DNA of 64,000 bases from Acidobacteriota bacterium (GCA_041501225.1 JBGQNR010000005.1:3661-67660); one strand, 5' to 3'. Positions 42,644 through 61,393 are shown, counted from the first letter of the stretch. The notes: generated by a model not told the origin, from the sequence alone. Translations and numbers: made by a program.

Positions 42644-43351
42644 TTAATGGCTACGACGGGAAGGGCCGTGATCGTCGGTACGGTTGGAGAAGCGCTCTCC
42701 GAGAATCGTGGTGACCAGCTGGGCGGCGGCCCGCATTTTCGGTACTTTGACTGCGCCGCCGACTCTGGGAGGCTCATCTCCCGGGATCTCCACAATTCTC
42801 AGCCCTTTCTTCACCGCCCGTAACAAGAGGATCTGTCCCCAAGTGCGAAGGTTATTGTCGATCTTCAGATCCTCGATGACATCCCTCTTAAAGGCAAGAT
42901 AGGTGTACAGGAAGTCGGTGAATCGAAACATCCGGCCGAAAAACAGGTTTGCCATGCCATTGAATACACGGTTTCCCATGCCAGTGAAAAAGGTGTCGTC
43001 GTAACTTTTCGCGCCATAGCCGTACCGGGTGACATTGACAATGTCGTATCCCTCCCGGATCTTCTGGACCATCATGGGGATTCGGTCCGGGAGAAAGCTG
43101 CCGTCGGGCGCATAAATAATGACCACATCGCCTGAAACCTTTCGGACGGCTTCGTTCAGAGCTCCGCCCACCCCCTTCTGAGTCTGCACAAAAAGGGGGT
43201 AACCGTTTTCGCGGGCATATTCGATAGTGCCATCGGTGGACCCCCCATCCACGATGATGAGCTCCTCGTACCATTCCTTTTCGATAAGTGGCATGGTCGC
43301 GCGCATTCCCGCGATTTCGTTGATCTCGAAGACAATGATCGATATCTTCAT
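42644..43351 (-). CDS. glycosyltransferase family 2 (polyprenyl-phosphate sugar synthase-like, soluble)
   Basis: MKISIIVFEINE...ELIIVDGGSTDGT...VVIIYAPDGSFLPDRIP has the typical GT2 DxD/DGS architecture of DPM1/GtrB/ArnC-like enzymes. Confidence 0.75.
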   Translation of the reverse strand: MKISIIVFEINEIAGMRATMPLIEKEWYEELIIVDGGSTDGTIEYARENGYPLFVQTQKGVGGALNEAVRKVSGDVVIIYAPDGSFLPDRIPMMVQKIREGYDIVNVTRYGYGAKSYDDTFFTGMGNRVFNGMANLFFGRMFRFTDFLYTYLAFKRDVIEDLKIDNNLRTWGQILLLRAVKKGLRIVEIPGDEPPRVGGAVKVPKMRAAAQLVTTILGERFSNRTDDHGPSRRSH

Positions 43352-43393
43352 TTCACCACCAGCCGATTAGTTAATTTCTGATTTGCGAAGCCA

Positions 43394-44374
43394 TCACTTC
43401 CCGGGCGCCCAGACTATATATGAGTAGGGATCGTCGTATAGATTGCCGAACATCTGCCTGTGGATCTTCAAGATCCGGATGGCTCCCCTGGACTCCAGCT
43501 CCTGCAGGCTTGCGAGATATCCGCGCAGGTAATTGCGCCTCCTGTGATATAGCCATGCCAGATAATCTACGAGGTCCTCGGGGTTGTACAGTTCGAAAAT
43601 GCCGACCACGTCGATGCAGATTTGCGGCTTTTTCCTCAGGAGGAAATCGAGGAACTTTTCGTGCTCCACCCCCAGCTGTTCCAGAGCCCCGAATGTGAAA
43701 ACTGCACTTCCCGGGCTGAACCCCAGCGTCTCGTCGGGATCGAAGAAATTGAACCGGCCCCCGCGAATCTTCATTCCGAACTGGCTTCCGATCAGTTGGA
43801 GAATCCTTTCCGAGGAGTAGGCCCAATCGAAACCATACAGGGACTTCTCAGGGTAAAGTGAGGCGAGGTGAACGAGATTGTGGCCGGTTCCGCACCCGAA
43901 TTCATACACCGATTCGAATTCACGGAAGTATTCTTTGAAGAGCCACTCCCGGAATATCTGGGTGTACTTGTACACAAAGTCGCATTGCGCCGGCAACACG
44001 TATTCACGGTTCAACCGGATCGGGACGTTACTCTTGTAGTACTTGGGGATAAGCTTGCTGAGATCGAAATTGGCCCCGACAAACTCCTCCAGATTCTGTT
44101 TCCACCCGTCTTCCCAATCTCCTTTCCGGTGATCCCCGGCATTCTTGAGATCGGGCGCGTGGATTCGTTTCAGAATTTGCAATATCAGCTGGTCCCGATC
44201 GCTGCCTTGGATAATGCCGTATCCCGGATCGATAGCGTCGATCAGAAAACCGGCACTTTGGCGGATTTTTTCTTCCGTCGTTCCGAAGAGCGCAGCGAAA
44301 TCCTCGTCCTTCAGTTGGCGGCGTTCAGTTGTCACTTGATTCATGGAATTTTGCATGGGCATGGGGATTATCAA
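43394..44374 (-). CDS. SAM-dependent methyltransferase (class I core in the C-terminal half)
   Basis: VYEFGCGTGHNLVHLASLYPEKSLYGFDWAYSS (motif I) and AVFTFGALEQLG. The track start is TTG, and the ATGs at codons 5/7/11 are alternatives. Confidence 0.7.
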   Translation of the reverse strand: MIIPMPMQNSMNQVTTERRQLKDEDFAALFGTTEEKIRQSAGFLIDAIDPGYGIIQGSDRDQLILQILKRIHAPDLKNAGDHRKGDWEDGWKQNLEEFVGANFDLSKLIPKYYKSNVPIRLNREYVLPAQCDFVYKYTQIFREWLFKEYFREFESVYEFGCGTGHNLVHLASLYPEKSLYGFDWAYSSERILQLIGSQFGMKIRGGRFNFFDPDETLGFSPGSAVFTFGALEQLGVEHEKFLDFLLRKKPQICIDVVGIFELYNPEDLVDYLAWLYHRRRNYLRGYLASLQELESRGAIRILKIHRQMFGNLYDDPYSYIVWAPGK

Positions 44375-44375
44375 A

Positions 44376-45503
44376 TCAAGGGGTCCAATCTACGAAGGTC
44401 CGCAGAATTCGCGCCAACATGGTGAGGCGAGTCTGCTCTCCGGCGATCAACCGGGAGAGTTGCCGAATGCTGGTTTCGTGATGTTCGCAGACATCATCGG
44501 GGAAAAGGAACGGGCCAAAGGCATGCTCGAACATGGACAGGATCTCCGCCCAAAAAATGAATTCGTTCCGCGCGCCGGTATCCGCACGCAGTCTGGCATA
44601 GTCCGCTTTGACGGCATGAGCGAGGAGATAGCACAAAGTCAGGCTGTCGAGCACGGTGATGTTCTCTTCCGGAACGCCGCGTTTCCGTAGACTCTCAGGG
44701 GATTCGCCTCCAGGGTGCGGGCTGGCAATATATTGGGTGCCGGGATTACAAACCCGATCCACTGGAATAGCCGCCAGGGTTCCATCGGCATGCAGAATGT
44801 GATCGAGCAGGAGGACGAGTCGAGGATCCGCTACGACTGAGGCGTGACTGTGGTTGGCATCCCGGATTCCAACAATGTGTCTGCCTATGGCTTTGAGGGT
44901 ATGCGCGCATGCGTTTGCGCTGAGCGAGGCCGTCCTGGGCGCCTCCAGAATTCCGTACGCCAGTTTATATTTGTGATGAAAGTGCAGCATAAAACCATGC
45001 GCCAGAATGGTCTCTACCGCGACGCGAATCGCTAAATGCACGATGCCGCCGCGTTCCACGGGATCAAAATCATGAATGGCGACGGTCCCCCCGGGGCGAA
45101 GGAAGGGTGCCCAGGCGTTCCAATCTCCAACCACACCATCCAGCGTATGATCCCCATCTATGAAAAGGAAATCGATGGGAGGCGCAGAACTAAGGCCCCA
45201 TGTTTCGGCGAAGGCTCTGGATGGCTGGGCAATGCTGATGACCCCTGTCCCTTCAAGGGTCGCAAGCGCTTCGCGGGAGGGGGAGACGTCGACCGTGTAG
45301 ATTTGAATCCGCCTGCCTTCAACGGCGCGATGCATAAGCCAGGCGCTGCCGCCGTCGGCAGTGCCGATTTCGACAATCGTGCCACCGTCGGGAACGGATG
45401 CCGCGACACCGGACAAGATTTCATACTCCTCTTTCCACAGTTGGGTCTGAGGAATTTTGTGATCGATCAAGAAGTGCTCCCACGACAAGGATGGAAAGGG
45501 CAT
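44376..45503 (-). CDS. class I methyltransferase (Methyltransf_24/CmcI-like) with C-terminal extension
   Basis: TIVEIGTADGGSAWLMHRA...IYTVDVSPS...IDFLFIDGDHTLDGVVGDWNAWAPFLRPGGTVAIHDF. Confidence 0.75.
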   Translation of the reverse strand: MPFPSLSWEHFLIDHKIPQTQLWKEEYEILSGVAASVPDGGTIVEIGTADGGSAWLMHRAVEGRRIQIYTVDVSPSREALATLEGTGVISIAQPSRAFAETWGLSSAPPIDFLFIDGDHTLDGVVGDWNAWAPFLRPGGTVAIHDFDPVERGGIVHLAIRVAVETILAHGFMLHFHHKYKLAYGILEAPRTASLSANACAHTLKAIGRHIVGIRDANHSHASVVADPRLVLLLDHILHADGTLAAIPVDRVCNPGTQYIASPHPGGESPESLRKRGVPEENITVLDSLTLCYLLAHAVKADYARLRADTGARNEFIFWAEILSMFEHAFGPFLFPDDVCEHHETSIRQLSRLIAGEQTRLTMLARILRTFVDWTP

Positions 45504-45524
45504 ACCTCCATCGGCAGTGTAAAA

Positions 45525-46499
45525 TTACGAGAGGCTCTTGGCCTTTGGGTCATAGAAAATCTGGTTTTGATACGTCGTCCGGATTCTATCCAGTTCGTTG
45601 GCGGTTAAGGCAGATAATCCCACAGCGGAAGAATTCTCTATGACTTCCGTGCAGGACATCATTCCCGGAATGACCGTCGAGACGCCCTCTTCTGCCAGAC
45701 AAAACTGCAGGGCCAATTGGACGAGAGTTCGATTCGTGCCCGCGTTGAGAGGATTGAATAGTTCCGGAGCCCGAGCCCAACGCCGCAGCTGCTCGCGGGG
45801 CCAATTAGCCCGGTGGTCGCACCCCTTGAATTCCTCATCGCCCGTGAGCTTGCCGGAAAGGTATCCGAAACAAAGGGGCGTCCTCGCAACGACGCCGACC
45901 TTTTTTTTCCGGCAAATATCGAACAGCCCGCAGTCGATAGCCCGATGGTCGATCAAATTGAAGTTCACCTGCACCGCGCCAAAGCCATACTTCTCCATGG
46001 CGATCAGGGCATCCGCCGGGGAACGCGCAGAAATACCGTAGGCGCGAATTTTCCCCGCCTGTCGCAGGCATTGCAGCGTGTCTATTATCTCGTCCCAATT
46101 GGGTAGGTCGATCTGAGGGCTGTGCAATTGATAAAGATCGACACAGTCGGTCCGGAGACGCCGCAGGCTGGCATCGATTCCGCTGCCAATTTTGGCTCGG
46201 GAGAAATCCTGAGGCATGTAAAAGCCACTGTGTGGGAGCGTACCTACTTTCGTGGCAAGGACTACCTTATCGCGGCATTTGAGGAAAACCTCGCCGAGGA
46301 TTTCTTCGCTGTGGCCGTTGCCGTACAGGTCCGAGGTGTCGAAAAACGTGATCCCGAGTTCGAATGCATGACGCAGTGCACGACAAGACTCGTCGTCATT
46401 CACCGGTCCATAGGAATCGCCGCCCAGGCCCCAGGTGCCAAAACCGATCTCGGAAACTACTAAGCCGGTGCGGCCGAGTTCACGGTACTTCATTTCCAT
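45525..46499 (-). CDS. aldo/keto reductase
   Basis: MKYRELGRTGLVVSEIGFGTWGLGG...FFDTSDLYGNGHSEEILG...VDLYQLHSP. Confidence 0.85.
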   Translation of the reverse strand: MEMKYRELGRTGLVVSEIGFGTWGLGGDSYGPVNDDESCRALRHAFELGITFFDTSDLYGNGHSEEILGEVFLKCRDKVVLATKVGTLPHSGFYMPQDFSRAKIGSGIDASLRRLRTDCVDLYQLHSPQIDLPNWDEIIDTLQCLRQAGKIRAYGISARSPADALIAMEKYGFGAVQVNFNLIDHRAIDCGLFDICRKKKVGVVARTPLCFGYLSGKLTGDEEFKGCDHRANWPREQLRRWARAPELFNPLNAGTNRTLVQLALQFCLAEEGVSTVIPGMMSCTEVIENSSAVGLSALTANELDRIRTTYQNQIFYDPKAKSLS

Positions 46500-46532
46500 G
46501 CTGCCTCCACGATTCTCCCCGATCCTGCGTTT

Positions 46533-47477
46533 TCAGAGACGGATGTTCCCCTTTTTGCCATAGTTATCACAGAACCAGCGAATGGTACTCTCTAATCCAA
46601 TCCGAAACGGCGTGTACCTAAACCTGGAGCGTTCGATGAAACGGGAATTGTCGGTGCTCTTCTTCTGAATGCCTCCGGGTTTGGAACTGTCGAATACAAT
46701 GCGGTCGGGTGAGATGCAGAGAATCTCTGCGATCATCCAGGCCGTTTCCTTGACGGAGTGTTCCTCGACGGATCCCACGTGCAGAATCTGCGGGTCATCA
46801 TAATGATCGAGGCACCAGAGATAGGCCCGCGCCATATCTTTTGCATAGGTGTACTCACGCACCGGCGAGCCATCTCCCCAGATGACGATGGGTTCATTCG
46901 ATTGGCGGCTTTCGCAAAACCGACGGATCAATGCTGCCACCATGACCGATTCTTCGGGCCGAAAGTTGGCTCGTTCTCCAAAAATGCCGTTGGAAACCAG
47001 GCCGATCACGTTCATCCCGTACTCGGTGCGGTAGGCCCGGATGCTTGGCTCAATCAGCCTCTTGGCAAAAGAGTAGCTATAATTCGATTCGTGCGGCGGG
47101 CCATCATGAATATATTCTTCCCGGATTGGATTGGGGGCGTCGACTGGGTACATCCCGGTAGAAAGCGTCAGGATGCATTTGGCCACACAATGCAGTCGGG
47201 CGGCTTCCAGAACATTGAGGTTCATCAAGACGTTGTCGCGGAGCAGGGTCGCCGGATGTTTTTGGCTGTATTGAATGCCCCCTGCCAGCGCCGCGGTGTG
47301 AATTATCGCATCCGGGCGGAAACGATCGACAAGTCCCACCGTGTCATCCAGCCGGGTCAGATCACAATCTCGGGAGCCGACAAACAGGAACTCCCCGCCG
47401 GGATATTTCCCCGAGACTGCCTGGATGGCGCTTCCCAACAGCCCGGTGCCGCCGGTAACGAGGATTTTATGATACAT
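46533..47477 (-). CDS. NAD(P)-dependent epimerase/reductase, GDP-L-fucose-synthase-like (SDR)
   Basis: KILVTGGTGLLGSAI, then a short N-terminal Rossmann domain followed by NYSYSFAKR (YxxxK) and ALIRRF. Confidence 0.7.
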   Translation of the reverse strand: MYHKILVTGGTGLLGSAIQAVSGKYPGGEFLFVGSRDCDLTRLDDTVGLVDRFRPDAIIHTAALAGGIQYSQKHPATLLRDNVLMNLNVLEAARLHCVAKCILTLSTGMYPVDAPNPIREEYIHDGPPHESNYSYSFAKRLIEPSIRAYRTEYGMNVIGLVSNGIFGERANFRPEESVMVAALIRRFCESRQSNEPIVIWGDGSPVREYTYAKDMARAYLWCLDHYDDPQILHVGSVEEHSVKETAWMIAEILCISPDRIVFDSSKPGGIQKKSTDNSRFIERSRFRYTPFRIGLESTIRWFCDNYGKKGNIRL

Positions 47478-47486
47478 ACTCGATGA

Positions 47487-48452
47487 TCATCCCTTTGGAG
47501 AGACCGCCGGAAAGATGAATTTCGGTTTGTCTTTGATTTCGTCATAATGTGCCGAATACCAGTTCACGGTCCGCTGGATTCCTTCCGCCAGATCCTGGTT
47601 CAGACACATTTTATATTTCTCCGCGAGCCTGGTCGTGTTCAGGAATTTTGACTGCACGCCGACATAACGCTGGGTATTGAAGAAAAGTTGGCTTTGGAAA
47701 TCGGCGGCTTTCCCGATCGCGAGCGCCAAGTCCCGGATCGATGTGCCTTTCCCGGGAGCCAGATTGAGGATCTCACGATCCAGGCGCGGAATCAGGTCGA
47801 GCAAGGCACGGACAAAATCCTTCACGTATAGGAATTCGCGTATTTGCGATCCATCCCCCCAGATTTCCACCATCGGCAGATGCTCCCGCGTGGCGCGAAC
47901 GAATTTGGCGACGAGGGCGCCACACACATGGGCGGTATCCGCGTGAAAATCGTCGTGTTCGCCAAAGAGAGTCGGCGGGATGATATAACTCCCGTTCATG
48001 CCGAACTGGTCATTGTAGGCCAGGATGCCGGTGTATAGGAGGCGCTTGGTGAATGCATAGGAATAGACGCTCCCGTGAATCTCTCCGTCCAGGAAGCTGG
48101 CTTCTCGCAAGTCGTCCAGTCGGCTGGGGTAGGCGCAGGAGGATCCCATGGCAATTAATTTCGCCTGGGGAGAAAATCTCCTCCATGCCTCCAGCACATG
48201 GGTGTGAATCAAGCTGTTGATGCGGAACTGCTCTGCCGTATGTTTCGCCGGGAAATCTCCGGCAGCCTGAAAACAGGCGAGGTGGAGTATGACTTCCGCA
48301 CCGTCATTCTGCGCAAACACAGCGTCGGCCTGCTCTCGGATCGTCAAGTCGAATTGACTTTTTGAGAATACAACAAAGTCGGCCTTTCGACTCTCCAGCT
48401 CTTCCTGGAGGTGCCTGCCGATGAAACCAGTTCCGCCTGTCACAAGGATCAT
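47487..48452 (-). CDS. NAD(P)-dependent epimerase/reductase, GDP-L-fucose-synthase-like (SDR), second copy
   Basis: MILVTGGTGFIGRHL, SSCAYP, VYSYAFTKR and ALVAKF. The start overlaps the upstream stop (ATGA at 48449..48452). Confidence 0.7.
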   Translation of the reverse strand: MILVTGGTGFIGRHLQEELESRKADFVVFSKSQFDLTIREQADAVFAQNDGAEVILHLACFQAAGDFPAKHTAEQFRINSLIHTHVLEAWRRFSPQAKLIAMGSSCAYPSRLDDLREASFLDGEIHGSVYSYAFTKRLLYTGILAYNDQFGMNGSYIIPPTLFGEHDDFHADTAHVCGALVAKFVRATREHLPMVEIWGDGSQIREFLYVKDFVRALLDLIPRLDREILNLAPGKGTSIRDLALAIGKAADFQSQLFFNTQRYVGVQSKFLNTTRLAEKYKMCLNQDLAEGIQRTVNWYSAHYDEIKDKPKFIFPAVSPKG

Positions 48453-49453
48453 GGTGCCAGCATCTCTTTGATTTTTGCCGCGATTTTTGCAGTGGATGGA
48501 TAGAAACACTTTTCTAAAACACCGCTAGCCGGCATCGAACATTCGGGAAAGGTGAAGCGCCGGACGGGTGCCTTCAGGTATGGGAAGGCCTTTTCGGCGG
48601 CCAACGCACAAACTTCCGCGGCAAAGCCGCACATCGGGAAATCATAGTCCACGACCAAGAGACGCCCGGTCTTTTTTATCGAGTCGATGATCAATCCGTC
48701 GTCGAGAGGTTTCAGCGTTTGCGGATCGATCACCTCCACATCCAGTCCATGCTCTTCGCAGGCATTGAAGGCGTCGATGGCGGCGATGGAGGTAGCCACC
48801 ACCGTCAACCGCTTCCCCTGTCGCATCACAAGCCCCTTCCCTAGAGGCAGCGTGTACATTTCCGGGGGCACATGGCCGGTGTTTTTGTACAGCCATCGGT
48901 GTTCGATGAAAATTACCGGGTAATCATCCTGGATCGAGGCGAGAAACAATCCTTTCACATTGTAGGGAGTGGAAGGCATCACGACTTTGAGACCCGGAAT
49001 GTGGGCGAACAGAGATTGCATGGAGCCGGAATGCTGAGCGCCTGATCCCCATCCCCGGCCGATAACGGCCCGAATCACAAGCGGTACCTTGACTTGACCC
49101 TGGGTCATGTAGCGCCATTTCGCGATGTAGTTCACGATCTGGTCCATGGTGAGCATCATGAAGTCGACGCGCAATTGAATAAAGATCGGGCGCATGCCCG
49201 ACAGTGCAGCGCCGAGCGCGACGCCGGTCATCGCGTTTTCCGATATCGGCGTGCCGATGATTCTGTCCGGATAGGACATGTTGTGCATGCTGCCGAAAAC
49301 GCCAAATTTATCGTTGGCGTCCAGGCCGATGGCGAACACGGATGGATCGAGAACCATCGCCTGGTCGATCGCTTCTCGGATGGAATCCTTGAAGCTGAGG
49401 ATCCGGTCGCCGTCGACTAGGTTCTGGCATTGAGGAATTCTGCTCCAGGGCAT
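48449..49453 (-). CDS. TPP-dependent 2-oxoacid dehydrogenase E1 component, beta subunit-like
   Basis: SFKDSIREAIDQAMVLDPSVFAIGLD...RIIGTPISENAMTGVALGAALSGMRPI...PLVIRAVIGRGWGSGAQHS is the transketolase pyrimidine-binding plus C-terminal domain pattern. Confidence 0.8.
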   Translation of the reverse strand: MPWSRIPQCQNLVDGDRILSFKDSIREAIDQAMVLDPSVFAIGLDANDKFGVFGSMHNMSYPDRIIGTPISENAMTGVALGAALSGMRPIFIQLRVDFMMLTMDQIVNYIAKWRYMTQGQVKVPLVIRAVIGRGWGSGAQHSGSMQSLFAHIPGLKVVMPSTPYNVKGLFLASIQDDYPVIFIEHRWLYKNTGHVPPEMYTLPLGKGLVMRQGKRLTVVATSIAAIDAFNACEEHGLDVEVIDPQTLKPLDDGLIIDSIKKTGRLLVVDYDFPMCGFAAEVCALAAEKAFPYLKAPVRRFTFPECSMPASGVLEKCFYPSTAKIAAKIKEMLAP

Positions 49454-49454
49454 C

Positions 49455-50408
49455 TTACACCTCCCTCACGAGATCGGATTCGTTCGGGAAAGGGCTGTTC
49501 AGTGAAAACTCGATGGCCTCATCAATCTCCGCCTCCACCGCAGCGATCATTTCCTGAATCTCGTCGGAAGAGACGATTTGATTCTCCCGCAGCGTGTCTT
49601 CGAGCTTTTTGATAGGGCAATCACGTGCCCGATCGACGGGATTATATGCTAAGTCATCCACTTCCACCCCTTGGTGCTTCATCCAACGTTTGGTCGTACA
49701 TCGCAAAAACATCGGGGCCCGGTTTGATCGGACGTAATCCGTCGCCTGCGCGGCGGCATGGTAGACCGATAGAACGTCCGTGCCGTCAGCGCACGCGACG
49801 GGCATGAATTGGCGGGCGACGTTTTCGATTTCCACGAAAAGGTGTTCCGACTTGGGCATGACATTCGAGAGGGCATTGTCTTCGCACACCAGGAGAACGG
49901 GGACCCGTTTGAGTGCCGCGAAATTGATGCTCTCCCAGAATACGCCGGCATCCATAGCCCCATCGCCGAAGCAGGAGACCGAAATCCAGTCGGATCCTGT
50001 GAGCTTAGCGGCCAGAGCCGATCCAACCCCCAGGGCAATGCTACCACCAACGATCGAAGAGCTGCCCAGCATGCCGTTCGGCACGTCCACGAGGTGCATG
50101 GACCCCCCATACCCGCGCGCGCACCCTGTGGTTCTGCCGTATAGTTCCGCCACCAGCTTCTTCATATCCATCCCTTTTGCCAGGGCGGGGCCGTGGGAGC
50201 GGTGCCCGAAGAAGATTTTGTCGGCCGTAGCCAAGTGGGCACAAACGCCAACGGGAACCGCTTCCTGCCCAATGTGCAGATGGACCGGAGTCACCATCAC
50301 GTCCGTCGGGTAGATCGTTATGATTCTCTCTTGGAGCTGGCGGATCTCCCGCATTTTCCGCAGCAACCGGAGGGAGATGTCACGCGGAGGGATCGTGGGA
50401 TGTTGCAT
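49455..50408 (-). CDS. TPP-dependent 2-oxoacid dehydrogenase E1 component, alpha subunit-like
   Basis: HLHIGQEAVPVGV...GYGGSMHL...SCFGDGAMDAGVFWESINFAALKRVPVLLVCEDN is the TPP-binding GDG..N motif. Confidence 0.8.
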   Translation of the reverse strand: MQHPTIPPRDISLRLLRKMREIRQLQERIITIYPTDVMVTPVHLHIGQEAVPVGVCAHLATADKIFFGHRSHGPALAKGMDMKKLVAELYGRTTGCARGYGGSMHLVDVPNGMLGSSSIVGGSIALGVGSALAAKLTGSDWISVSCFGDGAMDAGVFWESINFAALKRVPVLLVCEDNALSNVMPKSEHLFVEIENVARQFMPVACADGTDVLSVYHAAAQATDYVRSNRAPMFLRCTTKRWMKHQGVEVDDLAYNPVDRARDCPIKKLEDTLRENQIVSSDEIQEMIAAVEAEIDEAIEFSLNSPFPNESDLVREV

Positions 50409-50427
50409 ATTGCATTCGCCTTATTCA

Positions 50428-51519
50428 CTAGGTTGTGCCGCATTCTTTCGTTTGCAGCCGGATAGCGAGATCGGACTCACGGAACGCTTCAATCGGACGG
50501 TTTTCCCTGTCCTTTTCCTCGACGGAATAGTCCTGTTCCGGGTCGAAGAAAATGATCTGGCTGCCGGAGAACGAGATGCAGAAGGGTACATATAGCAGTT
50601 TAGACAAACGTTCCCGCACCGCAACCTGGCAGGAAGGAGGCACGAAAAGAAGCATGAATCCGCCACCTCCGGCTCCGGTCAATTTCCCGCCGATCGCTCC
50701 GGCGGAACGGGCTTGCTGATACAGCGTATCCACGTCACCATTGGAAACCTGATCGCTGAGGCTTCGTTTCGTCTCCCAGCTTTCATGGAGGAGTTTACCA
50801 AACAAGGAAATATCCTGCCCGCTGCTGATGACGGAAAGTCCTTCATCCACCATATCCCGCAGGATGCGCAGTTGGCGCTTCCGTTTCTCGATTTCCCGTG
50901 TGTACGTGTGTGCGACTTCTGCGGCGGTGCGTGTAATACCCGTATAAAACAACATCAGGTAAGATTCCAGTTCCCGGAGGCGCTCCTTGGTGATGGTGAC
51001 CGGTTTGATGGAGATTTCTCCATTCTGCAGAAATTCGATATGGTTGAGCCCGCCGTAGGCAGCAATGACCTGATCCTGGGATCCTACGTTTTCCCTCATG
51101 ACTTCCTGTTCGATATAGATGCTCTCCAGCGCAAGCTTCCGCTTGCCCGGCATCTGCCCCTGGAGCGCATAAAGAGCGTGCAATAGCCCTACGGTGAACG
51201 AGGAACTCGATCCCATGCCGCTGCGCGCGGGCAGATCGCCCTGGTGATGGATTTCGATTCCGCGCTCAATCTTTAGATACTTCAATATGCCCCGCACGGC
51301 CGGGTGAAGAATCTCTTCCAGAGACATGCAGTTCTCAATTTTCGACCAGACCACACGATACCTGTATTCGAAAAACGGCGGCAAATGTCGACAGGTCAGG
51401 TAAGCGTATTTGTCGATGGAACAAGCCAGAACGGCACCGCCGTGATCACGATACCAGACCGGGTAATCCGTTCCGCCACCGAAGAATGAAATACGATAGG
51501 GTGTTCTACTGATGATCAT
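50428..51519 (-). CDS. GHMP-family sugar kinase (HddA / heptose-7-phosphate-kinase-like)
   Basis: IISRTPYRISFFGGGTDYP...GDLPARSGMGSSSSFTVGLLHAL...GKLTGAGGGGFMLLF. The ATG at 51519 has RBS aggaaagga. Confidence 0.8.
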   Translation of the reverse strand: MIISRTPYRISFFGGGTDYPVWYRDHGGAVLACSIDKYAYLTCRHLPPFFEYRYRVVWSKIENCMSLEEILHPAVRGILKYLKIERGIEIHHQGDLPARSGMGSSSSFTVGLLHALYALQGQMPGKRKLALESIYIEQEVMRENVGSQDQVIAAYGGLNHIEFLQNGEISIKPVTITKERLRELESYLMLFYTGITRTAAEVAHTYTREIEKRKRQLRILRDMVDEGLSVISSGQDISLFGKLLHESWETKRSLSDQVSNGDVDTLYQQARSAGAIGGKLTGAGGGGFMLLFVPPSCQVAVRERLSKLLYVPFCISFSGSQIIFFDPEQDYSVEEKDRENRPIEAFRESDLAIRLQTKECGTT

Positions 51520-51643
51520 AATTCCTTTCCTTTGCACGCGGTACTCGTGATGGTACATGTGCGTTTGATACCTGACACTGCTGTCCGGGGTATGAGCGAT
51601 CTACGGGATCCCACCGGCGACCAAAGACTCCCTGATACGGAAC

Positions 51644-52363
51644 TCAATCGCAAGCCAAAAACCCGGGAGCCATGCCATAGGTATCCGGCGTGCCGATATC
51701 AAGAAACCGGACGAAACTCCGATATCCATAAAATGCCCGTCCGATCCACGAGGGAAATATGTCGCGTTCGATCGACAGGGGAACATGAGCCGGCATGGCT
51801 TCGATCCAGGATCTTGCAATCAAGTACACGCCGGCATTAATCCATCCCGGTCCGCCCTCGTTCTTTTCGCGGAATGACTGGATCGCTCCCACAGCATCCA
51901 CTAGGACTTGCCCGTAGCGGCTCACATCGTCAACCTCCGCCAGGAGCAAGGAAGCGCCCGCGTTCCGCTCGAGATGCCATGCCCAGAAGGCGACGAAATC
52001 CGCTTTGGCGATCGAATCGCCGTTCATGACCAGAACGTATCGGGATTGGATCCTCGCCAGTGCATGACGCAGAGCTCCTGCGGTTCCCAATGGGGTAGGC
52101 TCTTGGGAATACAACAACTGCCGGCCAGCATATGTGTCCCCCAGCACGGCGCGCACCTGATCTCCGCGATACCCGGTACAGAGTACAATGCGGGTAATCC
52201 CGGCTGTGGCTACCTGGTCCAGAAGATAAGTCAGAAACGGCTTTTGATTTACCTCTGCGAGCACCTTGGGGCGGTCCGCGACCGCCGAGCGCAAACGAGT
52301 TCCCAATCCGCCCACCAGAATTACCGCCGTCGCGTCCGACAAATTTTCCGCAGTTTTACACAT
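51644..52363 (-). CDS. sugar-1-phosphate nucleotidyltransferase (HddC/GMP-like)
   Basis: AVILVGGLGTRLRSAVADRPKVLAEV..KPFL is the N-terminal G-x-G-T-R-L signature. There is an 8-nt overlap with the upstream gene. Confidence 0.8.
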   Translation of the reverse strand: MCKTAENLSDATAVILVGGLGTRLRSAVADRPKVLAEVNQKPFLTYLLDQVATAGITRIVLCTGYRGDQVRAVLGDTYAGRQLLYSQEPTPLGTAGALRHALARIQSRYVLVMNGDSIAKADFVAFWAWHLERNAGASLLLAEVDDVSRYGQVLVDAVGAIQSFREKNEGGPGWINAGVYLIARSWIEAMPAHVPLSIERDIFPSWIGRAFYGYRSFVRFLDIGTPDTYGMAPGFLACD

Positions 52364-53297
52364 TTTTGAACGGCGCCCGCCCCAGCATCCGGTACCCCTT
52401 GAGGAGTTCTTGAATCCCGACATCCAACGAACGGCGCGCCTGGAAGCCAGCTTCCTTCAATCGCCGATTGGACACGATGTAATCGCGTTTGTCGGGATCA
52501 CTTCCCACGGGAGCGAAGTGTATATAAAATCGGGGCACGTATTCCTTGACTTTCAAAGCGAGCTCTTCTTTCGAGAGATTGGCCTCGTCGAGCCCCAGAT
52601 TGTAAGGGCGACCGACCATTTCTGAAGAATGCGCAATGCAATGGAGGAAGCAGTCTGCCACGTCACGAATGTGGATGTAGTTGCGTTTGGCGTCTTTTTC
52701 GAAAATGACGATGTATCCATCGGTCACGGATGCGTAGACAAAATGATTTACCAACAGGTCGAGCCTCATCCGGGGAGACATTCCGAAAACCGTGGCCAGT
52801 CGCAGCGTCACGGTGTTCGGACTGTCCAATAGTTCTTTTTCTGCCTGGACTTTGGTTTGGCCGTAAAGCGAGATGGGCTCGAGCGAGGTATCCTCCGTGC
52901 AAAACCTGTCACCCGATTGGGTGCCGTAGCCGCTATTGGTGTTCGGGTATATGACCAGCTGTTGCGGGCTACGCAATCGATTGACGAGCCGAACCGCTTC
53001 GAGGTTGATCGATCGCGCCATCCAGGGATCTCGATCGCAGGCCGGTGCGCCGACGAGGGCCGCCAAGGGGATGATGACATCGGCATTCTTGATGCACCGG
53101 CTCATCAAAGATTCGTCGCGGGCATCTCCGAATACAAAATCAAAACCCGGCTGCGCACAATGTTGGAAAAGCGTATGCTGCGAGTAGTAGAGGTTGTCGA
53201 CCACCGTGACCTGATGGCCTGCCTGGAGCAGGTGTTCGCATAAAATGGAACCCAGGTATCCTGCGCCGCCTGTGATCAAAACTCGCAAATCCATCAT
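52356..53297 (-). CDS. NAD-dependent sugar epimerase/dehydratase (SDR)
   Basis: VLITGGAGYLGSILCEHLL and the catalytic YxxxK LYGQTKVQAE. Confidence 0.8.
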   Translation of the reverse strand: MMDLRVLITGGAGYLGSILCEHLLQAGHQVTVVDNLYYSQHTLFQHCAQPGFDFVFGDARDESLMSRCIKNADVIIPLAALVGAPACDRDPWMARSINLEAVRLVNRLRSPQQLVIYPNTNSGYGTQSGDRFCTEDTSLEPISLYGQTKVQAEKELLDSPNTVTLRLATVFGMSPRMRLDLLVNHFVYASVTDGYIVIFEKDAKRNYIHIRDVADCFLHCIAHSSEMVGRPYNLGLDEANLSKEELALKVKEYVPRFYIHFAPVGSDPDKRDYIVSNRRLKEAGFQARRSLDVGIQELLKGYRMLGRAPFKNV

Positions 53298-53475
53298 TCA
53301 CTCCATCGCGTCATTCGACTGCAATGACGCATGCCTCCAAAATGCGATAGTTTTCCGCAATATCTCACAGAAGAAGGCATATTGCAATCACCACAAGGAG
53401 CCCTTCGCCTGCGGGATCCCTATTGGGAAAGGTTGATTCGCACCTGCCGCGGTTCGCATCGCAAGTTGCTGTTCC

Positions 53476-56301
53476 TCAATGGCTTCCAGCCCCTCTTAGC
53501 CCGATCCCTGGGCGACAAGAGAGGCGGTGGTTGATTCGCAATGCTATCTCCCAAAGCAGGAGAAACGCCGCGACGACGGCCAGAAACTCGGAGGCTTTGA
53601 CCATCCTGGGGATCGGCGCGGCGAAAAGCGCCGTAAGTCCGACGTGGGCCAGATGAGCGAGGATCATGACCGCTGCGGCATAGCCGCACCGCCCACGCAG
53701 CCAAAGCGCAGCGAGGAAGCAAAGACCATAGAGAAAATACGGATCGAGGAAACCACAACGGAACCTGGCTCCGCTAGGCTGGGTAAGCCCCAATACCCAG
53801 AACCTGATGCCAAAACTCAGATAATCCAGCCGCCGGGTGGCCAGGATTGGAGTGGCAATCTTCATCAAGAATTCGGCCGGCTTCGGGTGGCCGGCGATCA
53901 TGGGCAGCGCCACCTTATATAGATTGTTGTTGATGTAGTACACGTACCGGCAGTATTCATCCCCTTTACACATCTCATCTACGCTCCGGTGCTCCATCTC
54001 TCGGCGTGCGAGCGCAGACTGCAACCATTGACGCGACTCCTCATCCGGCATCAACCCGACATCCTGCGGCTGAGCGACCTGCAGGGCATAGGTGATACGG
54101 TACTGGTACTGAAGATTCTCCTGGGCCGCCCCTAATTGGCCGGTCTTGATCATGCCGTAAATATCCGGGATGGTTGCCAACGCGATCAGCGGCAGGATGG
54201 AGAGCAGGGCCCAGCGCCAGTAGGTTCTCCAATTGACAAACAACGCCCAAAGAATCATGGCGACCAGAAACAGGAACGTATAACCGGCGGCCTGGCGAGT
54301 AAGATAAATGGCGCCGCACAGCAGACCGGCGAGGGGCAGCATGCTCTTCCGTGCATTCCAAAGGAACAGGAGGAATACGGACATCAGAAGCAACACCAGG
54401 GTCTGCACCAGGTCTTCGGTCAGGATCAGATTCAATTCCTGTGCGGTAAAGAAAAGAAAGTCATATAAAAAAAGGAAGAGAATCGCGGGGAGAGGTGACC
54501 TCAGAAGGGTCATCAAGAACCAGCAGCTGACGAGGCCTGCCGCGAGCAACAAAAAAATCTGCACGCGTCCCACCCGAAGCAAGGGATCGCCAGGGTCGGT
54601 AATCGCGATATTCACCGGATGGACCTTGGCCCACGCCGCGGGATCAAAACCGCTCCCGAGCGTGACCAGCTTGATGAACCATGGGTACAAAGGCTGCCGT
54701 GGAGAACCCACATAATACCCGAAATAGTAACTTGCAGAATCGGGTGCCGTGCAACAGGCGTCCCACGCGGAAAGGGGCGCCTCCGTGCGACACCACTGCG
54801 CTGGGTTCGGGGCGACGGCGGTCAGAAGATAGTAGGCGACAACGAGCGCAGCAAAATGAGGTGCAAGGTACTTCTTCGGACAGAGTGCCCCGAATTTTTT
54901 TCGCAACAGCCATGCCAGCAGTACATTCAGCGGGACGATAACCCGCCAAAGAGTTCCATGCAGCAAGGACAGGGAAGAGAAGGCACGGGATAAAGCGATG
55001 ACGACTATCGGAAATGCTGCGCACAACACGACCGCCCATACCACTTTGGGAGTCCATAGGGACTCTAGCGAAATCCGTCGCTTCCTCATCAGCAAAACTG
55101 TAGAGGAGGTCGCCAAACCACAAAACAAAACCGTCAGAGCGTACAGGACATAAGCGGGCAGCCTGCCTACCATGCGCGGGTAACGCATCTCATACCGACG
55201 ACCGTTCATCCGAGGGTCGGCATTATCCGAGGCCGAAAAATAAACACACTCGTGCCAGAACGAATAGCGCCCTTTTCCGAGGGTACGAATGTCGTCGTGC
55301 AAGGCATTGGCCGGGCCTGCCAGGGGTGTGCCGTCCTCCAATAATTGTGCCGGGGAGGGGCCCTTGTGGGAACTCAACAGGGGATCATGGGTAGGAGCCA
55401 TGTAGGCGAAGCCATGTTCCGCCTGGATGCCGGCGATGACGCCCGAACCCCAATAGGGAGTCAATCTCCCCAAGCGATTCAGATAAATCAGGAGGGATAA
55501 ACTCAACAGAAGCAAAGAAGCCGGCCAAAGTATCCGCGGAGAGATTGTTACTTGCTCTGCCAATTGCAGGAATGCCTTCGGCACGAACGCCAAAATGGCT
55601 GCCACTCGGGCACGCCGATTCGCAGGGGACGCAACACGTTCGGGCCAGAGGCGGCGCAAACCCTCCCTTTTCCTCCATGCGATGCGCAGGGCGAGGAGCG
55701 CGACCCCAAAGACGGCGATGAATGTGATGCCGTACAGTATGCGAGCCGAACCATCATCCAGAGAGCGCGGGAAGGAGATTTCGTACTTTCTGCCATTGGT
55801 GCGGGGGTCCGTATTGTCGGAGGTGGCGAAATAGACGAAATCGTGCCAAAAGGAGTAGCGGCCCCGGCCCGACCTCCGTATGTCGTCATGCAGAGAATTC
55901 CCGCCTCCCGGCAGAGGGGACCCGTTCTCGAGGATTCGGGCCGGGGAAGGTCTCTCATGCGAACTCAATTCCGGCAAATGCGTGGGCGCCACATAGGCGA
56001 AACCGCGCTCCGGCTGAAAGCTATCCAATGTGGTCTGTTTCCACAGAACGGTCAACTTTCCCACGTGGCTCTCATACACCACGTAGGATGTCGTGCTTAA
56101 GAGGGCCACCAACAATACGTAACCCACGAACAGTGCCGTCCGCCAACGCTTCCCAATTACCAATGCAACCTCATTCTTGATTCCGAATCGACGGCATGGC
56201 CTACTTCCATGCAGCACAGCTGCCAAATCCGTGCCGGGAAGTGCCTCAGGCAGGGCCTGCCCCTGAGACGCCGGTGCCAGGTATTTATGGAACAGAACCA
56301 A
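53476..56301 (-). CDS. large polytopic membrane protein carrying two recurrent modules (A-type); possible GT-C-like enzyme
   Basis: 941-aa ORF. One TM precedes module 1, 2-3 TMs separate the two modules, and 12 or more hydrophobic segments follow module 2. There is no ATG near the 5' end: the track start is TTG, and a TTG at 56163 with gagg upstream is an alternative. Confidence 0.75.
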   Translation of the reverse strand: MVLFHKYLAPASQGQALPEALPGTDLAAVLHGSRPCRRFGIKNEVALVIGKRWRTALFVGYVLLVALLSTTSYVVYESHVGKLTVLWKQTTLDSFQPERGFAYVAPTHLPELSSHERPSPARILENGSPLPGGGNSLHDDIRRSGRGRYSFWHDFVYFATSDNTDPRTNGRKYEISFPRSLDDGSARILYGITFIAVFGVALLALRIAWRKREGLRRLWPERVASPANRRARVAAILAFVPKAFLQLAEQVTISPRILWPASLLLLSLSLLIYLNRLGRLTPYWGSGVIAGIQAEHGFAYMAPTHDPLLSSHKGPSPAQLLEDGTPLAGPANALHDDIRTLGKGRYSFWHECVYFSASDNADPRMNGRRYEMRYPRMVGRLPAYVLYALTVLFCGLATSSTVLLMRKRRISLESLWTPKVVWAVVLCAAFPIVVIALSRAFSSLSLLHGTLWRVIVPLNVLLAWLLRKKFGALCPKKYLAPHFAALVVAYYLLTAVAPNPAQWCRTEAPLSAWDACCTAPDSASYYFGYYVGSPRQPLYPWFIKLVTLGSGFDPAAWAKVHPVNIAITDPGDPLLRVGRVQIFLLLAAGLVSCWFLMTLLRSPLPAILFLFLYDFLFFTAQELNLILTEDLVQTLVLLLMSVFLLFLWNARKSMLPLAGLLCGAIYLTRQAAGYTFLFLVAMILWALFVNWRTYWRWALLSILPLIALATIPDIYGMIKTGQLGAAQENLQYQYRITYALQVAQPQDVGLMPDEESRQWLQSALARREMEHRSVDEMCKGDEYCRYVYYINNNLYKVALPMIAGHPKPAEFLMKIATPILATRRLDYLSFGIRFWVLGLTQPSGARFRCGFLDPYFLYGLCFLAALWLRGRCGYAAAVMILAHLAHVGLTALFAAPIPRMVKASEFLAVVAAFLLLWEIALRINHRLSCRPGIGLRGAGSH
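55177..55422 (-). other. recurrent ~82-aa module, A-type copy 2 of the membrane protein
   Basis: AEHGFAYMAPTHDPLLSSHKGPSPAQLLEDGTPLAGPANALHDDIRTLGKGRYSFWHECVYFSASDNADPRMNGRRYEMRYP. Confidence 0.7.
55768..56013 (-). other. recurrent ~82-aa module, A-type copy 1 of the membrane protein
   Basis: PERGFAYVAPTHLPELSSHERPSPARILENGSPLPGGGNSLHDDIRRSGRGRYSFWHDFVYFATSDNTDPRTNGRKYEISFP. Confidence 0.7.
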
Positions 56302-57647: not shown

Positions 57648-57697
57648 GGCTTTTCTCTCAGGCTGCGCGTTAGACTGCCTCCACTCAACGGAAACAA

Positions 57698-58533: not shown

Positions 58534-60246
58534 TCACTTCTCCGGCTGAAGCCCTGCCTGGAAGTCAGCCCGGGATGATGCCAGCAGACGCTCTTCAATG
58601 GGCTGCGCATTCAAATCTACGATGGAAGTGGTAAAAATCTCATTGTTCCTGCCAACTTCAAACTGCAATCCATCATATTGGAGGTCGTACTGGACATTAT
58701 CCTCGGCATAAGGATCGGCGGCTGCAGAGGTCAGGAAGTATATCTCATTGGTGAGCCACATGGTCACCTTCATGGCGGCTTCCACAAGGTCTCCCTTATA
58801 TTGCTTCCGGATCGTGGATTTTTGAAGTCGTGTGCTCGTCCCGAACATGTCCACGCCTTTGCGGTCTCGTATCACGAAGCCGAAAACCGTTCCTTCCACA
58901 TCCTCATAATACAGCACCCGCATAAACAGGGTACAATGCGCGCCCGACGTCAATATTACGGCAGGATTTCCGTCCTCATCGAGGATTCCGGATTCAAGGA
59001 TCTCGGCCTTGCCGTTCCCCATGCGCGCCAGTCGAGGGCTGGACAATTCCATCGGTTGGGATCTCCCTAATCGGTCCAGCGCGCGTCGGCGCAGAGTCTC
59101 TCTATCCGGATCCTGGATCATCCCCGGAGATGGCTGGGAAATGGGACGTACAACCTCACGCCGAAGACTATAAACGCGGCCATTAGATCTTGGATCGCTG
59201 TTGTCGCTGGTTGAAAAGAGCAGCGCTTTTTCCCAGTGGGAATATCCTCCTCTGCCATGTTTGCGGATCAGGTCATGCGTGTAATGAGCCGGGCGCAGTG
59301 GCTTGTCATCTTCATACAGCACAAAACGGGATCGCTGCGGATTCTCTGACGAATCGCTATGTACTGCATGGCCGGTCAGGTCGATCCACCAGGCATGGCC
59401 GCCCTCATGCTTGATCTTGCCTGCATCCAGGATAATTTCGGATTCCCCCTCCAGGGCTTCTTCCACTGCAGGAGCCGTTATTGAGGTTACTCTTTTCTCT
59501 CCCGCATCGCTGGCGAAGAGCATTTTGTAATACACCTTGCTGATGCGCTGGGGCTCGCCCTGATCGGCAATCTGCCCGCCCTCTAATAGGACGGCATGGT
59601 CACAGAAGGTGCTGATGGTATTGCTGTCGTGCGAAACCAGCAGGATCGTCCGGCCGACATTTCTGAACTCTTCGATCTTGCCGAAGGACTTGCGCTGGAA
59701 TTTGGCGTCCCCGACCGACAAGGCTTCGTCGATGATCAGGATGTCGGGATCGACGCATACCGCGGTGCTGAAGGTCAACCGGGCCTGCATACCCGTGGAA
59801 TAGGTCTTGAAGGGCTGGTCAATAAAGTCCTCGAGCTCGCTGAACCGGATGATCCAATCCATTTTGTCCAGGATTTCCTCGCGGCTCAATCCGACCATAA
59901 GCCCGCCGAGGTAGATGTTTTCCCGGCCGCTGTATTCGCTGTGAAAGCCGGTGCCGAGTTCCAGAATGGAAGAAACCCGGCCCTGGACCGCAACTCCACC
60001 GGCAGTGTAATCGAGCGTTCCGGTGATAATTTTGAGCAGCGTGCTCTTCCCCGCGCCGTTGCGCCCCATGATGCCCACAACCTGCCCCCGGCCCACTTCG
60101 AGGGACACGTTTTTCAGAGCCCAGAAAGGCTTGTATCTCGGCTTGCCGGTACACAGTTCCCAGAACATGTCCGCCGGCCTGGCGTAGATCTTGAACATCT
60201 TGGAGAGACTGGAAACGCGGATCGCAATCCCGTCGGCACCATTCAT
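58534..60246 (-). CDS. wzt: O-antigen/glycan ABC exporter ATP-binding protein Wzt with inserted recurrent module (B-type) and C-terminal Wzt_C-like domain
   Basis: Walker A GRNGAGKSTLLK, signature YSTGMQARL, Walker B ILIIDEALSVGD, and H-loop LVSHD. The module is at 59155..59406, and a beta-rich Wzt_C-like region lies at ~58645..59028 (GKAEILESGILDEDGNP...SGAHCTLFMRVLY...). The ATG at 60246 overlaps the wzm stop (ATGA). Confidence 0.85.
   Translation of the reverse strand: MNGADGIAIRVSSLSKMFKIYARPADMFWELCTGKPRYKPFWALKNVSLEVGRGQVVGIMGRNGAGKSTLLKIITGTLDYTAGGVAVQGRVSSILELGTGFHSEYSGRENIYLGGLMVGLSREEILDKMDWIIRFSELEDFIDQPFKTYSTGMQARLTFSTAVCVDPDILIIDEALSVGDAKFQRKSFGKIEEFRNVGRTILLVSHDSNTISTFCDHAVLLEGGQIADQGEPQRISKVYYKMLFASDAGEKRVTSITAPAVEEALEGESEIILDAGKIKHEGGHAWWIDLTGHAVHSDSSENPQRSRFVLYEDDKPLRPAHYTHDLIRKHGRGGYSHWEKALLFSTSDNSDPRSNGRVYSLRREVVRPISQPSPGMIQDPDRETLRRRALDRLGRSQPMELSSPRLARMGNGKAEILESGILDEDGNPAVILTSGAHCTLFMRVLYYEDVEGTVFGFVIRDRKGVDMFGTSTRLQKSTIRKQYKGDLVEAAMKVTMWLTNEIYFLTSAAADPYAEDNVQYDLQYDGLQFEVGRNNEIFTTSIVDLNAQPIEERLLASSRADFQAGLQPEK
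59155..59406 (-). other. recurrent ~82-aa module, B-type copy (inside Wzt)
   Basis: EGGHAWWIDLTGHAVHSDSSENPQRSRFVLYEDDKPLRPAHYTHDLIRKHGRGGYSHWEKALLFSTSDNSDPRSNGRVYSLRRE. Confidence 0.7.
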
Positions 60247-61079
60247 AGCACGTTCCCGAACATCACCTTCATTTTGCGAAACACACGATATCCCAGGACG
60301 AAAACGAAGAGGCTCGTCCCAACGAATGCCGCCCACGACCACGGGTGAACAAACCGCCCGAAATACAGAATATCCTGATAACACCAGACCATATAGCTGA
60401 AGGGATTGACGAAGAGGACGACGCGCACGGCCGTGGGCACGGATTCGGGCAGATACAGGATCGGCAGAATGAAAAACGCGACGGAGCAAAAGACCTGGAC
60501 AAAGTCTTTCACGTCACGAAAGTAGGCGCCCACGGATGAAAGCAGATAACTTGCGCCGATCATTGCCAACGCCTGCACCAGGAAAAGCAACGGCAGCAAA
60601 GCAAAAGTCCAAAGCAATTTGTGATAGGTGAAGAGATTGTATGCGGTCAGGAGCGCCAGGAAGATGATCTGAGTCGCAAGCGTGGCGATCACACCCTTGA
60701 CCGGAAGGACCTCGATCGGAAAGATCACCTGCTTGACCAGGTTGGCGTTCGCGACAATCACCGTCCCGGATTTCGTCATGCTCTCCTGGAATGCCAGCCA
60801 TGGGATCAGGCCGGCAAGCATGTACGATGTGTAGTTGAGCGGCATATCCAAGGTGCCGCCTACGCGCGTTCGAAAAACATACGCAAATATAAAAACGTAG
60901 ATCAGGATCAGGGCGAGCGGGTGGCCGATGGCCCAGAACGTCCCGAAGAACTGGCCGGAATAGCGCTCGCCGATCTCGCGCTTCGCCAACTCCAGAGTCA
61001 GGCGGCGGTGCCGGGTGAGCAGCGCAATCAGCTCATGAAATGCCTGCAAATTGGCCTTGAGATTCAATGCCGAAACCAT
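60243..61079 (-). CDS. wzm: ABC-2 type glycan exporter permease Wzm
   Basis: ~278 aa with six hydrophobic segments (FWAIGHPLALILIYVFIF, YMLAGLIPWLAF, ...) and translational coupling to wzt. The ATG at 61079 was chosen because the upstream 64 codons of the track ORF run through MITE family B. Confidence 0.85.
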   Translation of the reverse strand: MVSALNLKANLQAFHELIALLTRHRRLTLELAKREIGERYSGQFFGTFWAIGHPLALILIYVFIFAYVFRTRVGGTLDMPLNYTSYMLAGLIPWLAFQESMTKSGTVIVANANLVKQVIFPIEVLPVKGVIATLATQIIFLALLTAYNLFTYHKLLWTFALLPLLFLVQALAMIGASYLLSSVGAYFRDVKDFVQVFCSVAFFILPILYLPESVPTAVRVVLFVNPFSYMVWCYQDILYFGRFVHPWSWAAFVGTSLFVFVLGYRVFRKMKVMFGNVL

Positions 61080-61142
61080 AGGTCGTCCGGAACGTGGAAA
61101 ATCCAATGATAAGGGAGATCGCCGGAGAACGCAAAGACTGAT

Positions 61143-61393
61143 CCGAGGACCCTGCGATTCAGACAGTGGGCATGGAAAGTAGAAATCGATTATCTTTTCA
61201 CCGCGAAGACCACAAAGACCGCAAAGCTGACTCCCAGGCCCGCCCGGGGGCTGCCTTCGGCCGCCGCTCACGGCCGAGAATGGCGCAACGCGAAGCGTTG
61301 GCCCCCGGGTGTGAAGAATCGAATTCGCCTCTTTGCGGTCTTTGAGGTCTTCCCGGTTCGGTGTTTTCCTCTGTCTGAATTACAGCCGAGGAC
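61143..61393 (-). mobile_element. MITE family B, copy 2 (inverted relative to copy 1), with its own 8-bp target-site duplication
   Basis: CCGAGGAC (61143..61150) . ctgcgattcagacagtgg (61152..61169) ... cctctgtctgaattacag (61368..61385) | CCGAGGAC (61386..61393). The body aligns with the reverse complement of 31954..32260 but lacks an ~80-bp internal duplication present there. Confidence 0.8.

Follow-up and report, generated by a model that had tools for sequence, protein, structure and literature searches.

A 64,000-nucleotide stretch of DNA from an Acidobacteriota bacterium (GCA_041501225.1, JBGQNR010000005.1:3661-67660; hereafter the window) contains a compact block of eight minus-strand genes (positions 45525-53297), in which sugar-nucleotide enzymes are combined with the alpha and beta subunits of an E1-type thiamine-diphosphate enzyme. 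We propose, at a probability of roughly 0.55, that this block supplies the sugar-nucleotide functions of a longer operon and makes a carbon-branched heptose by means of the E1 pair, a reading that leans on analogy with characterised pathways.

All eight open reading frames (ORFs) lie at the coordinates that an earlier note on this DNA had given them, each with an ATG start and a proper stop, and Pfam, complemented by NCBIfam, agrees for every one with the family named there. From the first gene, encoding a short-chain dehydrogenase/reductase (SDR1), to the last, encoding an aldo/keto reductase (AKR), the intergenic spacings are -8, 124, 19, 1, -4, 9 and 33 nucleotides. The block is set in an ATP-binding cassette (ABC)-transporter-dependent (Wzm/Wzt) glycan locus.

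An E1 pair among glycan genes

E1 alpha (49455..50408), a thiamine-diphosphate subunit of the alphaKADH2 type and the proposed carboligase, matches the Pfam family E1_dh (PF00676) at 1e-45. The gene for E1 beta (48449..49453), which carries the Pfam domains Transket_pyr (PF02779) and Transketolase_C (PF02780), starts 1 nucleotide beyond its end. The cofactor motif of E1 alpha (G148-D-G...N178, GDG-X27-N) is intact, E1 beta keeps Glu72 of its PISE motif and His141 of its AQH motif, and the catalytic histidines of the pair are intact. Both subunits fall below the NCBI cut-offs for pyruvate dehydrogenase E1, with 256 bits for E1 alpha against TIGR03182 (cut-off 394) and 279 bits for E1 beta against PRK09212 (cut-off 321).

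No E2 or E3 gene is present in the window or on its 83-kb contig, and the three E2 genes of the genome all lie elsewhere (contigs C178, C335 and C127). The genuine dehydrogenase complexes in our comparison set show E1-E2-E3 adjacency. No paralogue of E1 alpha occurs elsewhere in the genome. The only other E1-beta-like sequence returned by a tblastn search of the genome with the window subunits belongs to an 800-residue fused E1 alpha-beta protein (contig C4:71733-72488 and surroundings).

More than 120 relatives of E1 alpha share 58-79% identity with it. A sample of 300 other genomes of the phylum contained no relative above 43% identity; the cassette is thus patchy in its distribution, as is typical for variable glycan genes. 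In the 36 related loci that were fetched or found (numbered with the prefix L below), the pair stands among sugar-nucleotide or glycan genes wherever the flanking sequence is sufficient. Carriers that can be cultured include Azospirillum lipoferum 4B (plasmid p6) and Solidesulfovibrio magneticus RS-1 (pDMC1).

A concatenated maximum-likelihood tree was built from glycan-locus pairs and three outgroup pairs adjacent to E2/E3 genes. The window pair falls within a fully supported 12-member clade, group A, with members from Acidobacteriota, Verrucomicrobiota and Planctomycetota. The group-A stem is long and fully supported (0.84 substitutions per site). The three E2/E3-adjacent pairs are separate from all glycan-locus pairs; with three outgroups only, the tree does not prove the glycan-locus pairs to be a single clade within the whole superfamily. 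The earlier note had placed the pair outside pyruvate dehydrogenase, expecting no E2/E3 genes just beyond the window, no clustering with housekeeping enzymes and no conservation outside glycan loci, and profiles, phylogeny and gene neighbourhood bear this out. Judged by these, the E1 pair is not a component of a dehydrogenase complex.

A housekeeping E1 was considered and rejected on the sub-cut-off scores, the lack of an E1 alpha paralogue and of nearby E2/E3 genes, and the count of 0 in 300 phylum genomes above 43% identity. Membership of the YerE-like family was rejected as well, since the Pfam E1_dh and transketolase-type domains lie on two polypeptides and do not form a single-chain decarboxylase fold; in its mode of action the pair may nevertheless resemble YerE.

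Probable heptose activation and C4 ketone formation

The GHMP sugar kinase (50428..51519; Pfam GHMP_kinases_N and GHMP_kinases_C) is HddA-like. Its top matches in the Protein Data Bank (PDB) are the heptose kinases 3K85, WcbL (4USK/4USM) and 4N3O, at 1e-33 to 1e-36, and it is 49-80% identical to the kinases of most E1 loci (36% in L028). The adjoining sugar-1-phosphate guanylyltransferase (51644..52363; NTP_transferase, Pfam 8e-27) is HddC/ManC-like, its top NCBIfam families being mannose-1-phosphate guanylyltransferase (169 bits) and HddC (136 bits), both under cut-off. The resemblance of the two enzymes to HddA and HddC, pointed out in the earlier note, agrees with the structure matches and with the literature.

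Genes for the other entry steps of the heptose route are found in related loci. Several of them carry gmhA, which in L015 overlaps with the gene for the kinase. The planctomycete loci L002, L012 and L013 have a GmhB-type phosphatase with a CxHx6CxCRKP motif, either fused to the nucleotidyltransferase or encoded next to it. The earlier note had called for a search for gmhA and gmhB in the rest of the genome. This turned up a GmhA-like gene (contig C259, 222 bits) and a GmhB-like gene (contig C118, 167 bits), each slightly below its equivalog cut-off.

SDR1 (52356..53297; Epimerase, Pfam 1e-29), which had been called only an SDR, is newly assigned here as a candidate Cj1427-type C4-dehydrogenase, the generator of the 4-keto sugar. 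It aligns with PDB 6VO6/6VO8 over 308 residues without gaps (E 8e-106, 357 bits, 57% identity), and the stretch YPNTNSGYG is identical between SDR1 and 6VO6. We take 6VO6 to be Cj1427 of Campylobacter jejuni, which the deposited molecule name fits. Cj1427 is a published ping-pong C4-dehydrogenase, in which alpha-ketoglutarate re-oxidises tightly bound reduced nicotinamide adenine dinucleotide (NADH) and L-2-hydroxyglutarate is released. Orthologues of SDR1 (50-80% identity) occur in 14 related loci.

A gene for L-2-hydroxyglutarate oxidase (lhgO; 314 bits against a cut-off of 299) lies inside five related glycan loci (L017, L021, L023, L033 and L036), all of which also have the Cj1427-type gene. 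One of these loci is on plasmid pDMC1 of Solidesulfovibrio magneticus RS-1, where the NCBI annotation itself reads lhgO. The genome that contains the window carries LhgO on another contig (C19:12904-14076). The presence of lhgO inside glycan loci is indirect support for Cj1427 ping-pong chemistry there, since the oxidase would otherwise have no obvious business in them. It suggests that the co-located enzyme is dedicated to recycling the by-product of the Cj1427-type dehydrogenase.

From this close homology, SDR1 is most likely a Cj1427-type C4-dehydrogenase, which ties the pathway to heptose. The scaffold of the pathway is very probably guanosine diphosphate (GDP)-heptose because of the heptose-kinase relatives, the similarity of SDR1 to 6VO6, and gmhA, GmhB and lhgO in related loci.

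A small NUDIX protein of about 150-160 residues recurs in the cassette (L001 8430-8915, L031 9209-9664 and L036 7456-7935). In L001, it stands where the nucleotidyltransferase would be. This protein may be a Gmm-like GDP-sugar hydrolase.

Proposed pathway and competing explanations

Three genes for reductase-like proteins complete the block. Fcl1 (47487..48452) and Fcl2 (46533..47477) are GDP-fucose-synthase-like SDRs of the Pfam Epimerase family; GDP-L-fucose synthase is the top NCBIfam match of both, at 152 and 188 bits, respectively, against an equivalog cut-off of 500. In an alignment with E. coli GMER, Fcl1 keeps the equivalents of S107, C109, Y136, K140 and H179. Its orthologues (54-72% identity) are found in five other group-A loci, and three of the five keep all these residues; of the other two, L003 carries Thr where Ser107 would be and L011 has an ORF truncated over this stretch (107-109). 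Fcl2, whose top PDB match is human GDP-fucose synthase (220 bits), was seen only in the window and in L001 among the related loci. It shows the pattern S-G-Y-K-V at the same positions, with Gly for Cys109 and Val for His179, and lacking these two residues it should be a reductase only. The AKR (45525..46499; Aldo_ket_red, Pfam 1e-60) has the catalytic tetrad D54, Y59, K84 and H126 and is a candidate branch-ketone reductase. An AKR gene also follows an E1 pair in L020. There is a precedent in paulomycin biosynthesis, where an AKR, Pau7, converts the acetyl branch at C4' of paulomycose into hydroxyethyl.

In the pathway that we propose, GDP-heptose would be the nucleotide sugar that enters tailoring. 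The Cj1427-type SDR would oxidise C4, with alpha-ketoglutarate re-oxidising the bound NADH and with the released L-2-hydroxyglutarate being recycled by LhgO. Fcl1 may then act on the 4-keto sugar as a C3/C5 epimerase, before branching. The E1 pair would decarboxylate pyruvate on thiamine diphosphate and add the resulting hydroxyethyl carbanion to the C4 ketone, giving a 4-C-acetyl tertiary alcohol, and the branch ketone would be reduced to 1-hydroxyethyl by the AKR, Fcl2 or both. Two methyltransferases would O-methylate the sugar. Finally, a small family 2 glycosyltransferase (GT2) resembling dolichol-phosphate-mannose synthase and ArnC, perhaps together with a 941-residue membrane protein, would hand the sugar to the polymer. 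Family membership and gene context are established by the searches, close homology underlies the predicted supply of GDP-heptose and its C4 oxidation, and analogy guides the steps from epimerisation through transfer, including the position of the branch, its donor and the order of events. The analysis supports the interpretation given in the earlier note; for the deoxygenation that the note also considered, the window has no enzyme.

The strongest analogy comes from more distant relatives of the pair (E1 alpha identity 33-42%). In an alignment of the 'DegT' proteins encoded next to them, 13 of 16 have His in place of the Schiff-base Lys, which by sequence is the signature of ColD/RfbH-type 3-dehydratases. 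In L027, L029 and L033, the gene for this 3-dehydratase-like protein lies between those for E1 alpha and E1 beta. By analogy, the distant loci read C4-dehydrogenase, 3-dehydratase, thiamine enzyme and reductase, which is the logic of yersiniose synthesis applied to GDP-heptose.

Several points weigh against the proposed route. Members of the cassette are assigned by sequence and gene context, and the tree covers glycan-locus pairs and three E2-linked pairs. The identification of 6VO6 as Cj1427 is probable and leans on the deposited molecule name. The kinase scores 141 bits against the HddA profile NF049969 (cut-off 600) and the nucleotidyltransferase 136 bits against HddC (cut-off 300), so the exact substrate of either is less certain than its family. 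In the planctomycete members of the E1 clade, L002, L012 and L013, no Cj1427-type gene lies within 10 kb. The window itself is the variant without the ColD-type 3-dehydratase, on which the analogy in its relatives mainly turns. Moreover, the epimerase/4-reductase active site of Fcl1 is complete. The enzyme could just as well reduce C4, in which case it and the E1 pair would draw on one ketone; this makes the order of steps the weakest part of the model.

This last point also bears on where the E1 pair acts. It might form its carbon-carbon bond on GDP-heptose at another site, for example at C3 after keto migration or in the C6/C7 side chain, which would give a linear higher sugar, or it might draw on another donor, for instance 2-oxobutyrate or hydroxypyruvate. 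The E1-type enzymes characterised so far place the branch at C3 or C4, Fcl1 looks capable of consuming the C4 ketone, the PALP-fold enzyme adjoining the L002 cassette could give a 2-oxo acid, and the cobalamin (B12) radical S-adenosylmethionine (SAM) enzymes of most group-A loci hint at further carbon chemistry. However, the C4-dehydrogenase is the sole recognisable keto-generating enzyme in the block, no 3,4-ketoisomerase or C6/C7 oxidase was found, and the E1-type group is reported as specialised for pyruvate-derived C2 units. A different site or donor is in our view unlikely, though likelier than the other alternatives and hard to tell apart from the proposed route by sequence. The pair could also act before activation, in the manner of DXS or transketolase, and make a longer ketose or deoxy-ketose phosphate for the HddA-, GmhB- and HddC-like enzymes; the GDP-octose route of lincomycin is a parallel. 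The conserved gene order kinase-E1 alpha-E1 beta, the distant relationship of kinase and transferase to HddA and HddC, and the extra split transketolases of L022, L025 and L029 would fit such a role. Three observations make it improbable: gmhA, present in several related loci and in L015 overlapping with the gene for the kinase, marks ordinary heptose 7-phosphate as the likely substrate of that enzyme; SDR1 is 57% identical to a GDP-heptose enzyme; and the 3-dehydratase gene between the E1 genes speaks for action of the pair at the nucleotide-sugar stage.

Chemistry other than carboligation would include decarboxylation of a keto-acid sugar, or cleavage or rearrangement of carbon-carbon bonds in a keto-heptose to give an unforeseen skeleton. 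Acetoin-cleaving enzymes belong to the same superfamily, and the long group-A stem leaves room for altered chemistry, but there is no precedent for this in a sugar pathway and the gene context fits the known branching logic step by step; we give it little credence. The pair is very unlikely to be an ordinary E1 of a 2-oxo-acid or acetoin dehydrogenase that uses a distant E2/E3 and stands in the glycan locus by chance or to supply acetyl-CoA. The genome does have three E2 genes, the catalytic histidines used with lipoamide are kept, and E1 beta resembles genuine E2-linked E1 beta and the distant glycan-locus pairs to the same degree (44-47%). These observations are set against the absence of E2/E3 genes nearby, the scores of both subunits under curated cut-offs, the lack of any relative above 43% identity in the 300 other genomes of the phylum, and the constant surroundings of the pair, which are sugar genes and in some loci include a sugar dehydratase gene placed between those of the subunits.

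Flanking genes and known branching systems

The tight minus-strand packing extends past 45525, through two methyltransferase genes, a GT2 gene, a GT4 gene and another methyltransferase gene, down to 39946. The first of these (44376..45503; Methyltransf_24, Pfam 2.5e-17) begins 21 nucleotides past the AKR gene in the same operon and has an orthologue at the same position in L001. It is followed by a gene for a 326-residue class-I methyltransferase-like protein (43394..44374), which has a YEFGCGTGHN motif but no Pfam family; a PDB search gave a single weak match, a polyketide synthase fragment (6HP1, 1e-5). Orthologues of this protein are encoded in L001 (60% identity) and, beside E1 beta, in L022 (41%). 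The small GT2 (42644..43351; Glycos_transf_2) is the candidate transferase for the modified heptose. Its top PDB matches are dolichol-phosphate-mannose synthase (5MLZ) and ArnC (9HWJ), it has no predicted membrane segment, and homologues occur in 7 E1 loci.

Upstream of SDR1, across a 178-nucleotide gap, the minus strand encodes the 941-residue polytopic membrane protein (53476..56301; about 13 hydrophobic segments), a possible GT-C partner. It matches no Pfam family, and an orthologue with 51% identity has the same position in L001. The block is flanked by the ABC exporter genes for Wzt and Wzm (58534..61271, minus strand; ABC_tran and Wzt_C, ABC2_membrane) and by further glycosyltransferase and methyltransferase genes. 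A scan of 39000-58900 for promoters and terminators gave sites no commoner than in shuffled sequence and is therefore silent on the limits of the operon.

In verrucomicrobial relatives, GtrB/ArnC-like GT2s with membrane segments are followed by large polytopic proteins, and the S. magneticus cassette includes a lipid-carrier-dependent glycosyltransferase. Because of these features and the likeness of the small GT2 to dolichol-phosphate-mannose synthase and ArnC, a polyprenyl-phosphate-linked sugar, with the 941-residue protein as periplasmic transferase, is a plausible transfer route by analogy.

A module of 80-95 residues, whose copies share 38-65% identity, is present in duplicate in the 941-residue protein and again in three methyltransferases, a 156-residue ORF and Wzt. 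The ORFs of the window that bear it are 53476-56301, 56436-57647, 37258-37728, 39946-41229, 32360-33907 and 58534-60489.

Other companions of the E1 pair vary between the related loci. A B12-binding radical SAM enzyme, with HpnJ as its top family but far under the cut-off, accompanies the pair in most group-A loci; the enzyme is found in L003, L005, L006, L011, L012, L013, L014, L017, L031, L033 and L036. The window and L001 are without it and have Fcl2, the AKR and the two methyltransferases instead. In the planctomycete locus L002, a PALP-fold, serine/threonine-dehydratase-like enzyme (6561-7523) adjoins the cassette and could supply a 2-oxo-acid donor for the E1 pair. Two E1 alpha/beta pairs are present in L020 and L027 and an extra split transketolase in L022, L025 and L029, which may mean more than one thiamine-dependent carbon-carbon step within one glycan locus.

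YerE-like enzymes are single-chain proteins of the decarboxylase superfamily, and C-branched sugars are rare and immunologically distinctive. In the synthesis of avilamycin, paulomycin, aldgamycin, kosinostatin and kibdelomycin, two-subunit E1-type (alphaKADH2) enzymes transfer a C2 unit from pyruvate onto a keto sugar, at C3 or C4. Carboligation by KbDH has been shown in vitro, and the roles of AviB1/B2, Pau11/12 and the aldgamycin pair are supported genetically. YerE-type enzymes, which are unrelated to them, catalyse the same branching reaction in lipopolysaccharide synthesis, on cytidine diphosphate-3,6-dideoxy-4-keto-glucose. According to a 2025 review, E1-type branchers belong with secondary metabolites, and YerE-like enzymes with lipopolysaccharide. 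The analogy that the earlier note had drawn to AviB1/B2 and YerE agrees with this literature.

The antibiotic systems (KbDH-alpha/beta, AviB1/AviB2, Pau11/Pau12, also named Plm8/Plm9, and the aldgamycin pair) are alike in having adjacent E1 alpha and E1 beta genes without E2/E3 in a keto-sugar pathway. We liken them to the window pair by gene arrangement and pathway context. Paulomycin shares a further feature, as its acetyl branch is handled by an AKR (Pau7) and the window operon also encodes an AKR. Their substrates are thymidine-diphosphate-linked deoxyhexoses or pentoses of actinomycete secondary metabolism, whereas GDP-heptose and a Wzm/Wzt surface glycan of a Gram-negative soil bacterium are indicated here.

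The YerE/YerF (yersiniose A) and ErwE/ErwF (erwiniose) systems resemble the proposed pathway in the thiamine-dependent attachment of an acyl branch to C4 of a 4-keto nucleotide sugar, followed by reduction of the branch ketone, for a surface polysaccharide. Relatives of the window cassette share with the YerE system a 3-deoxy-4-keto acceptor, predicted to be made by a His-type 3-dehydratase. The window differs in its two-subunit E1 type, in the probable GDP carrier and heptose, and in the lack of a 3-dehydratase. The capsular GDP-heptose toolkit of C. jejuni provides the entry enzymes GmhA, HddA, GmhB and HddC, the C4-dehydrogenase 57% identical to SDR1, and Fcl-like SDRs acting on 4-keto-heptose. 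In contrast to the window and its relatives, C. jejuni employs cupin epimerases and lacks a thiamine enzyme, an AKR and a B12 radical SAM enzyme, and its products are unbranched heptose epimers. Our literature search found no published E1-type brancher that belongs to a polysaccharide locus or acts on a heptose.

At slightly less than even odds, we see the cassette product as a new monosaccharide class, a nine-carbon, O-methylated heptose with an acetyl or hydroxyethyl branch at C4, displayed on surface glycans of many mostly uncultured phyla and built by the first E1-type thiamine carboligase known from primary cell-envelope synthesis, with lhgO showing how Cj1427-type dehydrogenases keep running. 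If this is true, two fields that have been studied separately, the heptose tailoring of Campylobacter and thiamine carboligases, would meet in an E1-type brancher of GDP-heptose, and the cassette would be a source of new carboligases able to take polar ketones as acceptors. The position of lhgO beside Cj1427-type genes would provide a physiological rationale for the unusual dependence of that dehydrogenase on alpha-ketoglutarate. A new surface sugar would be predicted for Acidobacteriota, Verrucomicrobiota, Planctomycetota and many other groups.

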